64,000 bases of DNA from Dehalococcoidia bacterium (GCA_965197585.1 OZ240215.1:3136001-3200000), one strand, 5' to 3'; shown: positions 26,035-63,030, counted from the first letter of the stretch. Notes: a model not told the origin generated them from the sequence alone. A program made the numbers and translations.

Positions 26035-26417
26035 GGATATACCCTTCCAATCTATAGTTCTATAACCTATTTTATCATACGTCAGGTGACCATCACCCCT
26101 TCCCCCTCCCCCTGGGGGATGGATTCACGCCATAGCCGCACTTACAGCCCGATTGGAGTCGGGAATGACGGAAGGAGGGATGGGGCTATGCCGGGCCTCC
26201 CACCCCACCCCATGCTAAAATTTCCTTGGAGGCCCTATGCAAGACGCACCCACCGCCGAGCCGGGACCCCTCCCCAAGGGCTTTGGGGCCGCTCACCCTG
26301 AGCTAGCTGAAAGTCCGCCGAGGCGGATCGAAGGGTCGAGCGGGGCGCGGCCCTGCGTTGTCAATCCGTCGTGGTTGTCCTCCGACAGTGACACCACCTC
26401 CCTCCCCCCTTGGTAAC

Positions 26418-26458
26418 GATATATCAGCCATGTTGCAGAGCAACATGGCTGATATATC
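26418..26458. repeat. perfect 19-bp inverted repeat
   Basis: GATATATCAGCCATGTTGC-AGA-GCAACATGGCTGATATATC. Confidence 0.9.
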
Positions 26459-26520
26459 AATAAAACAGGGCGGGTGGGTGGGACTTAACTTATTCCGGAA
26501 GGTCGGACGGCCCCTCCCCC

Positions 26521-26568
26521 AAAAGTGACACGAACCCCTTGACTCAAGCCGTACACATGTACTATATT
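26521..26568 (+). promoter_or_regulatory. sigma70-like promoter with LexA-like palindrome, copy 1
   Basis: TTGACT(26539)-18-TATATT(26563); GTAC-ACAT-GTAC at 26551-26562; conserved at 43314-43361. Confidence 0.65.
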
Positions 26569-26574
26569 CACCCC

Positions 26575-27130
26575 CGATAGGCCAATCACTATTCTCAAGA
26601 CCAAGGAGGAACCAAAAACCCAGGGAAGCCCACCTGACCCACCCGAGGACTCAACGCCTAAGCCCATCCCAACGGCCTTCGCGCAGGCCAGCGGCACAAG
26701 CAAACGTCGCCATCTCCTCATCCCATCGGGTCCCGTGTCCCTTCCCTGACTCCCAGGCGATGGATGGTCCACAATTTTAAGCGGCACGCTCCCCTCAAAG
26801 GAGCCCTGCCCAAATGAGCCCCGCTCACGCCGGGCCAAACACCTCGGGCCTTTACGCCCTTGGAAATATCTCCCCCGTCGTTCCCTTCGGAGACCCCCAT
26901 GCAACCAGCGACGGCAGCGAGAAAACGTGCTCCCCACCCCTCCGAGTGGGTCAGCCAAAACTGGTGGTAGAGATGCCCTCAAGCGAGAACCCCTCGCTTG
27001 TCTACCACGTGATAACAGAAGCACGGGGCTGAACCAGGCTGGCCTCCCGCCCCCTGAATCCGAGTCCCGGACCTTCCATCGCCTACTCCCCAACAACCAA
27101 AACCAAACTCCTACCACAACTCAATATCTC
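26575..27130 (+). ncRNA. candidate large structured ncRNA, copy 1
   Basis: Rod domain closed by CAGGGAAG(26621)/CTTCCCTG(26741); stem 26755-26770/27069-27084 encloses 298 nt; A/C-rich tail; no credible ORF; paralog at 43368. Confidence 0.65.
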
Positions 27131-34311: not shown

Positions 34312-34388
34312 GGGCCATTAGCTCAGGTGGTTAGAGCGCAGTCCTGATAAGACTGAGGTCCCTGGTTCGAGTCCAGGATGGCCCACCA
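34312..34388 (+). tRNA. tRNA-Ile(GAT)
   Basis: Full cloverleaf, anticodon loop CTGATAA, TTCGAG T-loop, ends ACCA; TATAAT just upstream. Confidence 0.97.
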
Positions 34389-40352: not shown

Positions 40353-40426
40353 AGCCCATCAGCTCACGCGGTTAGAGCGCAGTCCTGATAAGACTGAGGC
40401 CCGTGGTTCGAGTCCAGGATGGCCTA
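40353..40426 (+). pseudogene. degenerate copy of tRNA-Ile(GAT)
   Basis: Near full-length copy of 34312-34385 with C-C mismatch in acceptor stem, U8 to C, T-stem mismatch, no CCA. Confidence 0.85.
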
Positions 40427-42074: not shown

Positions 42075-43130
42075 TGTAAGTGTTAGGTAATTCGTTGACA
42101 GATTGGTATAAGAGGCCAACACCAATCTGGAGGCGAGAATGCGAGACAATAGCAAGGACCTCACCCTTGAGCGGAACTACATTCAGAAGTGGCGGTTCCT
42201 CATCCATGAGTATCAACTGGTCAAGGCAGGGAAGCATCCCCGTTTCCGCTTCGCCCAGGACTTCTACTCCTTCCACGGCACTAGCCGTCAGACCTTCGCC
42301 AAGTACTACAACCGGTTCCTCCTCTCCCCCTCCGACAACGCCTTCCTCCCCCGTAAGCGGGGTCCCGGGTGGAAGTCCCGCCGCACCCTGCCCTACATTG
42401 AGCAGAAGGTCATCAACGAGCGCCTTAACGGTACCAACCGTTACGAGATCTATGCCATACTCAAACCCATCCTTAAACACAACACCCCTAAGCCCTCCAC
42501 CATCTACGCCATCACCAGACGCCACGGTTTCAATAGGCTCACAAAGCCGATGCAGCAGTCGAAGCGCAAGATCATCAAGACCCGGGCAGGAGAGCTGGGC
42601 CACCTGGACAGCCACTACCTCAGCCGGGATACCATCGTGGGCACCAAGCACCGCTACTACCTGGTGGGCCTCATCGACGCCTACACCCGTCTGGCCTGGG
42701 CCGAAGTGGTCGGAGACATCAAGAGTCTCTCCGTTATGTTTGCTACTCTGAAGTCCATCAATTTCCTTAACGTGGAGTACGGCATCCAATTCGAGGCCAT
42801 CCTCACCGACAACGGCCCCGAGATGGCCTCCCCAAGGAACACCGAGGGCCACCCCATGGAACGGATGCTCAATGAGCTGGGCATAAAGCACCGCTACACC
42901 CGCCCTTATAGGCCCCAGACCAACGGGAAGATAGAGCGGTTCTGGAGAACCTTGAACGAGGACCTGCTGGAGGGGACAACCTTCGAATCGGTCTCGGAAC
43001 TGAAGGACGAGCTTCAGCAATACCTGATCTACTACAATACTCAGAGACCCCACCAGGCAATGGACGGAAAGACCCCTTTGGAGACCCTTAAATCCACCTA
43101 ATTCTGTCAACGAATTACCTGACATCCACA
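42075..43130 (+). mobile_element. IS481 family insertion sequence, copy 2
   Basis: TGT...ACA ends, same TIRs as copy 1, ATTCC target duplication. Confidence 0.93.
42139..43101 (+). CDS. IS481 family DDE transposase
   Basis: GHLD, LTDNG.E, PQTNGKIERF, YNTQRPH. Confidence 0.95.
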   Translation: MRDNSKDLTLERNYIQKWRFLIHEYQLVKAGKHPRFRFAQDFYSFHGTSRQTFAKYYNRFLLSPSDNAFLPRKRGPGWKSRRTLPYIEQKVINERLNGTNRYEIYAILKPILKHNTPKPSTIYAITRRHGFNRLTKPMQQSKRKIIKTRAGELGHLDSHYLSRDTIVGTKHRYYLVGLIDAYTRLAWAEVVGDIKSLSVMFATLKSINFLNVEYGIQFEAILTDNGPEMASPRNTEGHPMERMLNELGIKHRYTRPYRPQTNGKIERFWRTLNEDLLEGTTFESVSELKDELQQYLIYYNTQRPHQAMDGKTPLETLKST

Positions 43131-43313
43131 ATTCCGGCCGCCGAGAGCCGGAATCCATCCCTCTCCCCCAGTACTGAATTAGAGGCCCACGTGCGTGCAG
43201 AGTACGCACGTGGGCCTCTATTCTTATCTTCCCCTCTCCCTTAATGGCCCTAAGGGAGAGGGGGATTAAGGGGGTGAGGGTTCCCCGGTGGGGCTGGGGG
43301 CGGTGTTCCCCCA

Positions 43314-43361
43314 AAAAGTGACACGAACCCCTTGACCAGAGTTGTACCTATGTACTATATT
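43314..43361 (+). promoter_or_regulatory. sigma70-like promoter with LexA-like palindrome, copy 2
   Basis: TTGACC(43332)-18-TATATT(43356); GTAC-CTAT-GTAC at 43344-43355. Confidence 0.65.
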
Positions 43362-43367
43362 CACCCC

Positions 43368-44058
43368 CGACTAGCTCGTCACTCACCCTAACTATCTCAA
43401 GGAGGAACCAAAAACCCAGGGAAGCCCACCCGACCCACCCGAGGACTCAACGCCTAAGCCCATCCCAACGGCCCATACACGGGGCCCGCGGCACAAGCGA
43501 ACGTCGCCATCTCCTCATCCCACGGGTCCCGTGCCCCTTCCCTGTCGGCAGGCGATGGAAGATGCCTGGACAGAGCCGTAGTGGACCGGCCATACCCCGC
43601 CGAGACCCCGTCTCGGTGGTCGGTTAGCAGCGAGCTTACGCTTTATCAAGCAAGGGGTGGCGGACCGGCTATCCCCGGCCGAGACTCCCTCTCGGAGGTT
43701 GGCCCGCCTGCGAGCTTACGCCATATCAAGCAAGGGGCTGATGGGCCGCCTGGACCCTCGGGTGGCCCACGTAAATACGAAATCTGAGGGGGCTACTGCC
43801 CGATCACTGGCCCCCACCATGCCTGAGGGCATTCAGAGGCGGGGTCACAGCCGGACTATCTCCCCGGAGAGTCCGAGTTTATCATCGAGCATTAGGGGTG
43901 GCAGGGCTTCCAGGCCTCGGAGCAGCCTAACAACCGCCAGAAACTCGGGGCAAAACCGTCCGGCCAGCACCTTCCATCGCCTGCCCCTCCCAAACAAACC
44001 AAAACCCCACAATCGAAGATCCGCCTCAGGAGGACTGAATAAAAGCAGTCCCTCGGCG
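43368..44058 (+). ncRNA. candidate large structured ncRNA, copy 2
   Basis: Rod domain CAGGGAAG(43417)/CTTCCCTG(43537); stem 43547-43565/43967-43985 encloses 401 nt of hairpins; A/C-rich tail; 3' hairpin 44021-44057. Confidence 0.65.
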
Positions 44059-44072
44059 AGCCATTACCCCCC

Positions 44073-45581
44073 TTAATCCCCCCGGTAATACTCCATTCCG
44101 AGATGCGTGATCTGCTCCTCTCCCATCAGCCACCGCAGGGTGTTTTTGAGCTTCGTCTGCTGTATGAACAGGTCGTGCTCCGGGTACACCGACGGCGCGT
44201 GCTGCGGGCTCTTGAAGTAGAACGACAGCCACTCCTGGATGCCTGCCATGCCTGCCCGTTGTGCCAGGTCCATGAACAGCACCAGGTCCAGTACTAGCGG
44301 AGCCGCCAGTATCGAATCTGAGCACAGGAAGTTGACCTTCAGCTGCATCCGCCGCCCGAGCCACCCAAACAGGTCGATGTTGTCCCAGCCCTCCTTGTTG
44401 TCTCCCCGGGGAGGGTAGTAGTTGATTCGCACCTTGTGATAGGCGTCCTTATACAGGTCGGGATACAGGTCGGGCTGCAATATGTATTCCAGTACCCCTA
44501 GCTTCGACTCTTCCTTCGTCTTGAAATTCTCGGGCTCGTCCAGCACCTCGCCGTCCCGGTTCCCCAATATGTTCGTCGAAAACCAGCCATTCAATCCAAG
44601 CATCCTGGCCTTCAGCATCGGACCGATCACGGTCTTTACCAAGGTCTGGCCGGTCTTGAAGTCTTTTCCGCATATCGGCACGCCCTGGTCCCGGGCCAGC
44701 TTCTCAAGAGCGGTAACATCCACGGTCAGGTTGGGAGCCCCGTTTATGAAGGGCACCCTCTCCATCAATGCTGCGTAAGCGTAGATCATGGAAGGTGCGA
44801 TGTTTTCGTCGTCGTCATGAAGCGCCTCAACGAAATTTTCGATGTTTCGATGGGCCTCGGTCTCCGTAATGAATTTTTCGGTCGAGGCGCACCAGGCCAT
44901 AACCAGCCGGTCACAGTTGTTCTCTTCCTTGAAACGTCGGATATCGCTGCGTATAGCCTCCACGGCGGCGACCTTGGAGCCAGGCGATTTGACATTGGTC
45001 CCGTTGATGCGCCGGACGTAATCATTGTCGAAAATAGCCGGCATAGGCTCGACCGACCTCAGGAAGTCGGCTATGGGCTCCACCTGTTCATGCCGGTCCA
45101 AAACACCCGCGTTTACCGCCGAGTCGTAAGCGTTGTCGGGGATCGGGTCCCAGGCCCCGAATACCAGCTGGTCCAGCTTTGCCAGGGGAACGAAGTCCCG
45201 AATGAGTGGCGACCGTTTGTCAGGTCGCTTCCCGAGACGAATGGTGGCCATCTGAGACACCGATCCCACCGGTTGTCCCGTCCCCCGCTTGATATGCTCG
45301 ATGCCTGCGATAAAGGTGGATGCCACCGCCCCCAAACCCACCATCAGGACACCGAGTTTCCCGCTGACTGGGCTGATACTGGGGGCGGCTGTTGTTACGA
45401 AATCCTTAGGTTCCAAGTTGATCCCTTTCTCATGTGAAAGTTCCATTAGCCGCTCGTGCCACTGCGATGGTATGCGTCCAGTATTTGCCCAGTGCTGCAC
45501 CGTGCTTTGGCGTTTGCCCAGCAGTGCCGCCAGCGCCGACTGACCACCGAAACGATCGATTATCTGCTTTGCGTTGTTCAT
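44073..45581 (-). CDS. ino1: myo-inositol-1-phosphate synthase with N-terminal Cro-like HTH
   Basis: GLGAVAST, GKDFKTGQT, NILGNRDG, GDNKEGWD, DSILAAPL; extra ~65-aa N-domain FGGQSALAALLG..QSTVQHW...GRIP. Confidence 0.9.
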   Translation of the reverse strand: MNNAKQIIDRFGGQSALAALLGKRQSTVQHWANTGRIPSQWHERLMELSHEKGINLEPKDFVTTAAPSISPVSGKLGVLMVGLGAVASTFIAGIEHIKRGTGQPVGSVSQMATIRLGKRPDKRSPLIRDFVPLAKLDQLVFGAWDPIPDNAYDSAVNAGVLDRHEQVEPIADFLRSVEPMPAIFDNDYVRRINGTNVKSPGSKVAAVEAIRSDIRRFKEENNCDRLVMAWCASTEKFITETEAHRNIENFVEALHDDDENIAPSMIYAYAALMERVPFINGAPNLTVDVTALEKLARDQGVPICGKDFKTGQTLVKTVIGPMLKARMLGLNGWFSTNILGNRDGEVLDEPENFKTKEESKLGVLEYILQPDLYPDLYKDAYHKVRINYYPPRGDNKEGWDNIDLFGWLGRRMQLKVNFLCSDSILAAPLVLDLVLFMDLAQRAGMAGIQEWLSFYFKSPQHAPSVYPEHDLFIQQTKLKNTLRWLMGEEQITHLGMEYYRGD

Positions 45582-49007: not shown

Positions 49008-49103
49008 TGGCGGAAGCGGGGGGATTCGAACCCACCGAGACCTGTATCGAACACGTCTAACCGTTTTTAAGACAGCCGCAATAAACCTCTCTGCCACACT
49101 TCC
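49008..49103 (-). tRNA. tRNA with Ser-type body and TAA (Leu) anticodon; possibly a decayed tRNA-Ser(TGA)
   Basis: GGAAGTG/CGCTTCC acceptor, G73-CCA, long variable arm, anticodon loop CTTAAAA; mismatches in T and V stems. Confidence 0.75.
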
Positions 49104-62931: not shown

Positions 62932-63030
62932 TGGCGGGAGCGGGAGGGAGTCGAACCCACCGTGGACGCCGAAGGGCGCCCACCGGACGGATTTGAAGTC
63001 CGCGGAGCCCACCGGGACCCATCCGCTCCC
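62932..63030 (-). tRNA. selC: tRNA-Sec(TCA)
   Basis: 8-bp acceptor GGGAGCGG/CCGCTCCC, anticodon loop CTTCAAA, extended D stem, long variable arm, GCCA end. Confidence 0.93.

Follow-up and report, generated by a model that had tools for sequence, protein, structure and literature searches.

What is the promoter-bearing, ORF-less unit that faces the inositol phosphate synthase gene ino1 in a Dehalococcoidia bacterium, and how did it come to lie there? We analysed a window of 64,000 nucleotides (GCA_965197585.1 OZ240215.1:3136001-3200000) from this genome, which is a single contig of 3.43 Mb and 92% complete. A preliminary description of the window had placed the unit, here called copy B, at 43308-44058 and a related one, copy A, at 26516-27130, and had taken both for modular non-coding RNA elements with a common scaffold and different enclosed domains. 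The evidence assembled below argues that copy B is probably a decayed, non-autonomous transposon with its own promoter, which carries a large, ORF-less, folded RNA gene and belongs to a family that originated from a fragment of a terminase-like gene.

Architecture and state of copy B

The layout proposed for 43308-44058 stands: a promoter, an ~215-nt scaffold ~90% identical to that of copy A, a helix and a CA-rich tail, all on the plus strand. From the promoter through the following ~250 nt, the alignment of copies A and B is nearly gap-free, with copy B up to about 43565 matched to 26516-26765 of copy A; beyond that the two diverge. The promoter (43332-43361) is of a near-consensus sigma-70 type that matches 10 of 12 consensus positions; it comprises the -35 hexamer TTGACC (43332-43337), an 18-nt spacer and the -10 hexamer TATATT (43356-43361). 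Both hexamers and an upstream GTGACAC motif (43318-43324) are at least 90% conserved among 58 copies. The search for promoter-like sites returned two, against 0.3 expected from shuffles. Transcription of copy B would start near 43367.

The conserved, C/A-rich 5′ scaffold (43365-43546) contains small hairpins and a helix formed by CAGGGAAG (43417-43424) and CTTCCCTG (43537-43544). It also carries a Shine-Dalgarno-like box, AAGGAGGAA (43399-43407), which is identical in all 53 copies compared, from nine genomes, and has no start codon behind it. The element may be an analogue of STAB-SD, which stabilises the cry3A mRNA of Bacillus thuringiensis from its 5′ side and likewise consists of a perfect Shine-Dalgarno-like box that no start codon follows. 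The ribosome-binding-like box of copy B, together with folding, would stabilise its RNA.

The scaffold leads into a long-range helix whose 19-nt arms, 43547-43565 (core GGCGATGGAAG) and 43967-43985 (core CTTCCATCGCC), are 401 nt apart and 95% complementary, as had been described. The arms enclose a domain of consecutive hairpins (43566-43966), a mosaic B-type insert with an internal tandem duplication of ~80 nt (28-nt cores at 43630-43657 and 43710-43737). Downstream follow a CA-rich tail (43986-44012), a single 22-nt module (44013-44034) and CTGAATAAAA (44035-44044), where conservation stops in copies without a right end. Across the family, compared here in the 57 copies having a 3′ arm, tails hold from 0 to about 4 such modules. 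Both CCCAAACAAACCAAAACCCCAC and the GGACTG/CAGTCC hairpin reported behind the helix are present; the hairpin is private to the copy B locus and its orthologue in G005, the nearest relative. Small hairpin modules of ~22 nt, of the type GGAACATCCGCC...GGAGGA, occur besides in a scaffold hairpin loop (L024, L029, L072) and in the leaders of the type-2 relatives described below.

Copy B has lost its left end, and its 5′ side starts inside the promoter-upstream motif. On the right, a 13-nt remnant of the terminal repeat survives (44054-44066), with the remainder of the repeat and the target duplication gone; the G005 orthologue has the same truncated junction. Having lost the whole left end and half of the right one, copy B is immobile. 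The gene that converges on it, on the minus strand at 44073-45581, encodes myo-inositol-1-phosphate synthase (PF07994, E = 7e-96), and copy A converges on a NAD synthase gene, both as originally named. No terminator-like site was found downstream of the copy B tail. A cis leader or riboswitch was considered for copy B and rejected, given its convergence on ino1 and the lack of a terminator-like site after it.

Fold, conservation and possible expression of the RNA

The two arms are paired in the minimum-energy fold of 43365-44060 (z = -3.74; none of 20 shuffles was equally stable). A helix of 19 bp is found in copy B only; the family core consists of an invariant stretch of 10-11 bp plus 4-6 covarying pairs, and the distal pairs covary by subfamily. 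For the enclosed domain, the alignment of 20 B-type inserts from eight genomes supports 88 pairs, and 98% of its cells are paired. Double changes occur in ten pairs, compared with 4.3 ± 0.9 in shuffles, of which 0 of 500 reached the observed number, and 0-3 in slid controls. Four of the five insert hairpins proposed earlier, CCGAGAC/GTCTCGG, GGGGCTA/TGGCCCC, ATGCC/GGCAT and CGGACT/AGTCCG, are kept in these inserts, the last with double changes from G-C to C-G and from A-U to G-C. The fifth, TGGGCCGCC/GGTGGCCCA, is ambiguous: it is paired in the single-sequence fold, but the consensus fold joins GGGCCGCC to an upstream partner.

Covariation in the scaffold is slight, and the scaffold is kept mainly as sequence. 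When RNAalifold was applied to the scaffold alone, the 5′ arm found an alternative partner within 43510-43560, the upstream CGCCATCTCC. This predicted pairing may be an artefact of omitting the 3′ arm; a structural switch, in which the 5′ arm would pair with either CGCCATCTCC or the 3′ arm, is also possible.

Between orthologous copies, inserts are 96-97% identical and 3′ arms and tails 97-100%, both gap-free, compared with 92-97.5% in the downstream, mostly coding flank; the scaffold is lower, at 88-93%. These values bear on an alternative in which the element is selfish junk and its transcript functionless. The promoter would then be a relic of a terminase cassette, the helix an inheritance from the gene, in which the arms are already complementary throughout the genus (see below), and the hairpins would be maintained by gene conversion and the DNA-level needs of transposition. 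Gene conversion among copies could preserve sequence without selection, and the swapping of interior parts among copies, the slight scaffold covariation and the decay of many copies are what such an element would display. We nevertheless consider this alternative unlikely. Double compensatory changes occur in the insert and the distal helix, orthologous inserts are conserved at least as well as coding flanks and free of indels, and promoter, scaffold and helix are intact in copies without both ends, for example copy B and its G005 orthologue.

If copy B is instead a decayed transposon with an RNA gene as cargo, it would still yield an RNA of ~0.68 kb, from about 43367 to about 44044. Since copy B has no downstream gene and has lost its ends, with promoter, scaffold and helix intact, this RNA would be free-standing and act in trans, not as a leader; for copies such as B we infer that this is the most likely role. 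The long helix would probably be an element for double-strand RNA processing or stability. A role as CsrA sponge was also considered and dropped, as PF02599 was not found in the genome, which is 92% complete.

A weak hint of expression comes from metatranscriptome contigs, which in three runs of low depth cover 43387-43544, 43596-43806 and 43818-43978; the contigs reveal neither ends nor strand and may stem from DNA. All four runs consist of contigs at a depth unsuited to ranking genes, and nothing is concluded from the uncovered stretch 43249-43355.

At the gathering threshold, Rfam matched one tRNA-Sec and three tRNAs in the window (62936-63030, minus strand; 34312-34385 and 40353-40426, plus strand; 49011-49103, minus strand) and nothing else, so no group II intron or riboswitch family either. 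With E up to 10, the stretch 43200-44150 gave chance-level matches only; these fall in the REP-like repeat or around the promoter, ahead of the transcribed part. OLE, GOLLD, ROOL and raiA are large, ornate bacterial ncRNAs of unknown function with promoters of their own. The element RNA is like them in size, degree of folding and possession of a promoter; unlike them, it has no Rfam match and an exchangeable central domain, and it is mobile, with about 60 copies per genome in one genus only. HEARO and omega-RNAs are tied to IscB-IsrB and to ORF-less IS200/IS605 derivatives, and HEARO has an Rfam entry. The element is, like these, a multi-copy structured ncRNA that travels with mobile DNA. It differs from them in having neither an Rfam match nor an attached IscB or TnpB gene, and its terminal repeats and target duplications suggest a DDE-type mechanism.

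A probable transposon family and its insertion sites

With the copy B scaffold as query, nhmmer returned 62 matches in the genome, 58 of them longer than 200 nt. These 58 full copies bear out the earlier suggestion of a dispersed multi-copy family. All 58 contain the 5′ and 3′ arm cores, with inserts of 159-535 nt between them, and the total of about 60 copies takes up about 1.3% of the genome. By blastn, the scaffold is present in eight of eight congeners, each with 42-82 first-look candidates, and missing from 32 other genomes of the class, 3 from other genera of the family and 29 from other families. A literature search (supplementary files excluded) found no published description of the family.

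The inserts group in subfamilies whose members are 92-99.7% alike; the insert of copy A is 99.7% identical to two others, and that of copy B 94-96% to two others. Internal parts have been exchanged between copies. The orthologous ino1 site of G005 provides a case of the insert swapping that the preliminary description had proposed to look for. Its flanks are 95% identical to those of copy B and its scaffold merely 79%; behind the same junction it has an insert of another subfamily (349-nt type) and a tail with more modules. By these alignments, the interior of the element is replaced at a fixed site, and exchange of the middle part would be the way in which the family evolves. No element lies beside ino1 in G001, G007 and G008, though synteny differs there.

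What the first reading had overlooked are the signs of a transposable element, namely imperfect terminal repeats, duplicated target sites and empty orthologous sites, and the decayed state of copy B. Both end blocks are present in 14 of the 58 copies, which are 728-879 bp long, and neither is present in 29; copy B is among those without a left end, and copies with terminase-derived inserts mostly have no ends. Complete copies have TG...CA termini and imperfect terminal repeats of ~30 bp. The left and right ends share the blocks CGTTC, TAGA, GTGACA and CACC, separated by 1-2-nt indels, and agree at just 12 of 34 positions without gaps. When TG...CA is taken as the termini, the 5-bp target duplication is perfect in 7 of the 14 complete copies and matches at 4 of 5 positions in 4 others, compared with 0 and 4, respectively, of 182 non-cognate end pairs; copy B, its ends being lost, was excluded from this scoring.

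Both complete copies that were tested have empty orthologous sites in relatives. Copy c416241+ is present in G002, whereas G005 has an empty site with 2 nt between the flanks. The site of copy c3362419- is empty in G005, G002 and G001; in G002 the alignments of its two flanks overlap by 6 nt, which is what one copy of the target should give. Neither a transposase gene nor an ORF conserved across subfamilies is present inside the elements. MITEs are usually shorter than about 600 bp, a size that the complete elements exceed. Judged by these sequence hallmarks, the family is probably a genus-wide set of MITE-like, non-autonomous DNA transposons of 0.73-0.88 kb, and copy B an immobilised member.

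Of the 28 right-end blocks in the genome, 26 lie within elements. Five nucleotides past the block, a -35-like hexamer (at least 4 of 6 matches to TTGACA) is found at 19 of 28 right ends, compared with 3.2% of control positions (random non-genic positions). At 15 of 28 right ends a -10-like hexamer follows at a spacing of 16-18 nt, a combination found at 0.09% of controls. Insertion therefore appears to be aimed at the upstream edge of promoters, and the literature searched holds no precedent of a bacterial transposon that inserts next to promoters at a fixed distance from the -35 hexamer. Copies G000:C1:1530631(+) and 2399702(-) end directly upstream of tRNA gene promoters.

Targeting of promoter edges explains the placement of the family: crude gene calls put 46 of 58 copies ahead of a co-oriented gene, and 33 of 58 between divergent ones. 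The claim that the elements are stand-alone units and not leaders applies to copies A and B but finds no support as a rule for the family. The same placement speaks for a second alternative, in which the element is a mobile cis-regulatory module; its strong promoter and long, structured, Rho-sensitive leader would tune the downstream host gene, and copies A and B would be strays. Right ends that abut a host promoter and the absence of a terminator-like site after the RNA are in keeping with such a module, and there is a precedent in the Correia elements of Neisseria. In a review (PMC10969869), these are described as non-autonomous elements in many copies, with terminal inverted repeats and target duplications. 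They carry sigma-70-like promoters, and most of them are found immediately ahead of genes; once transcribed, the inverted repeats fold and are cleaved by RNase III, and inactive copies without ends are common. The present elements are likewise multi-copy, promoter-bearing and mostly upstream of genes, with target duplications, imperfect terminal repeats and many end-less copies. Compared with the Correia elements, they are longer (730-880 bp versus about 100-200 bp) and carry as cargo a complete inward promoter and an ~0.7-kb conserved multi-domain RNA. Their long-range helix is internal and not made from terminal repeats, they insert a constant 5 nt away from -35-like hexamers, and they descend from a terminase-like gene.

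We doubt that the element is a cis-regulatory module. The host promoter is intact past the element, with both hexamers at the 15 of 28 right ends, and the position is accounted for by target choice. Two copies run into tRNA genes, and copies A and B are well preserved although they converge on neighbouring genes. Within the family, a separate host promoter comes after the element.

A candidate for the missing transposase lies upstream of copy B, an IS481-like insertion sequence of 1056 bp (42075-43130, plus strand) with an rve transposase of 320 aa (42139-43101). Members of the IS481 family have TG...CA termini and make a 5-bp target duplication. The IS481-like element, of which the genome has about 20 copies, shows TG...CA ends and a 5-bp duplication (GGAAT/ATTCC). 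Our elements share the termini and the length of the duplication, and one end is partly similar: the IS481-like left end and the reverse complement of the element right end agree at 20 of 34 positions (P about 0.0015). Unlike IS481, they have no transposase, and their left end is dissimilar to the IS481-like ends when compared ungapped (7 of 34). The resident IS481-like copy sits at GGAAT in a REP-like repeat, whereas the elements sit beside -35-like hexamers. A search of the genome for an autonomous partner with matching ends found none; it yielded one solo left end and two left ends cut off from the element by inserted repeats. We infer that the elements were moved in trans by an rve-type (IS481-like) transposase. 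About 10 of 29 rve transposase genes, as counted by eye from coordinates, are within about 2.5 kb of an element.

Other repeats accompany the family. Copy B is abutted by a REP-like module of ~145 nt (43160-43305, plus strand), which belongs to a separate repeat family and is no part of the RNA. It contains a terminator-like hairpin (43180-43220) with a 19-pair stem and then a T-rich tail. Nhmmer found 47 matches to the module, including some palindromic self-hits; 17 are just upstream of elements, most of them 5-9 nt away. Upstream of copy A, at 26395-26500, lies a module that forms a long perfect palindrome. By hand count it occurs at about 11 loci in the genome (20 matches including self-hits), 9 of which are 14-71 nt upstream of elements.

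Descent from a terminase-like gene

The preliminary description had also overlooked that the helix and many inserts are descended from a protein-coding gene. The source protein has 430-463 aa and is encoded by two gene copies in the genome. In PHROGs it matches terminase-large-subunit families only, and weakly (E = 7e-6 to 2e-2); there is no direct match among Pfam and PDB sequences. Thousands of homologues of ~460 aa exist, and some at 55-58% identity carry PF17289. Both gene copies stand in a three-gene cassette behind a promoter motif common to the elements. The cassettes (G000:C1:2872277-2874405, L076; G000:C1:1117832-1119956, L077) encode, besides the 430-463-aa terminase-large-subunit-like protein, a basic protein of 134 aa and a membrane-like protein of 72 aa. 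The full-length large gene is present in 33 of 41 relatives in the class, mostly as a single copy outside the genus, a pattern that looks like that of a domesticated phage gene. Fragment matches to it, 8-28 per genome, are confined to the nine genomes of the genus.

The 5′ arm of the helix is homologous to the codons (S)DDGR of this gene and the 3′ arm to the codons (G)PSI(V). Within the gene the two stretches are 396 nt apart and complementary. This complementarity is found in the terminase-like genes of the genus and not in 12 homologues from other genera. Iterative nhmmer aligned 22 of 58 inserts, including that of copy A, collinearly with the gene segment; the other 36, including that of copy B, did not align. 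In global alignment to the segment, copy A reached a z score of 8.9 and copy B one of 1.7. The two methods agree, so copies A and B hold unrelated middle domains, as their description as different had implied. The ~20 nt past the 5′ arm of copy B match the terminase-like gene at 17 of 21 positions, as read from alignments.

A comparison of the inserts with phage, plasmid and host sequences, suggested earlier as a way to trace them, gave no source for the copy B domain. The whole element had no match in phage and plasmid collections (blastn, distant setting), and B-type inserts matched only small REP-like pieces in the host genome with the elements masked (blastn, tblastx). Taken on the alignments, the family is descended from an internal fragment of a terminase-large-subunit-like gene with the same promoter motif.

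At least 13 further loci, the type-2 relatives, share the promoter and have a long frame that opens with an ATG behind a conserved Shine-Dalgarno box; examples in G000:C1 are 684415(-), 1590962(+), 3022210(+) and 505506(-). In 12 of 13, this frame is open for 220-366 codons and has no stop over 660 nt, compared with about 4 stops in each of the other two frames. It aligns to residues ~162-345 of the terminase-like protein. Some type-2 copies have internal duplications of ~30 codons, and some frames continue into REP-like sequence.

The in-frame alignment of these open frames is the argument for a third alternative, that the element is a protein-coding unit for a terminase fragment, as its type-2 relatives appear to be. 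We regard this as highly improbable, and for copy B a coding reading was rejected. The scaffold-bearing copies, copy B included, have no start codon behind the Shine-Dalgarno-like box. Indels of 1-2 nt in the scaffold between copies disfavour coding, and insert lengths are not multiples of three. In copy B, an ATG in the frame of the arm meets a stop after 8 codons, and the longest open stretch, of 164 codons, is not shared in position across subfamilies; the insert has no match to the terminase-like gene at the protein or DNA level.

The path from gene to element recalls the Pack-MULEs of plants, transposons that capture and amplify gene fragments. Here, too, an internal gene fragment was amplified to tens of copies, some with an open frame. 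The elements differ from Pack-MULEs in being bacterial and in that the fragment retains the gene's own promoter; most copies are now non-coding folded RNA, and in B-type copies the fragment itself has been replaced.

A wider interpretation would link all of the ~70 promoter-driven units per genome, RNAs and type-2 relatives, through a promoter motif and a long-range helix in common with the cassette. They would be regulon-like satellites of a domesticated terminase-like nuclease/ATPase cassette, acting in trans, as RNA or protein, as decoys for a factor that recognises the helix, and carried to the promoter-proximal edge upstream of host genes by a transposase that recognises -35-like DNA. We think this quite unlikely; if true, it would describe a promoter-aimed bacterial transposon bearing an RNA gene born from coding sequence.

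For annotation, the element explains why these genomes have dozens of 0.7-kb gaps that bear a promoter but no ORF. If copy B is the decayed copy of a non-autonomous transposon that we take it for, the family would represent a bacterial transposable element that carries a large, conserved, folded RNA gene instead of a transposase or resistance gene. It would offer a traceable path from a terminase-like coding segment to a non-coding structured RNA, and the frame-keeping intermediates in the same genome would make the birth of an RNA gene directly testable.
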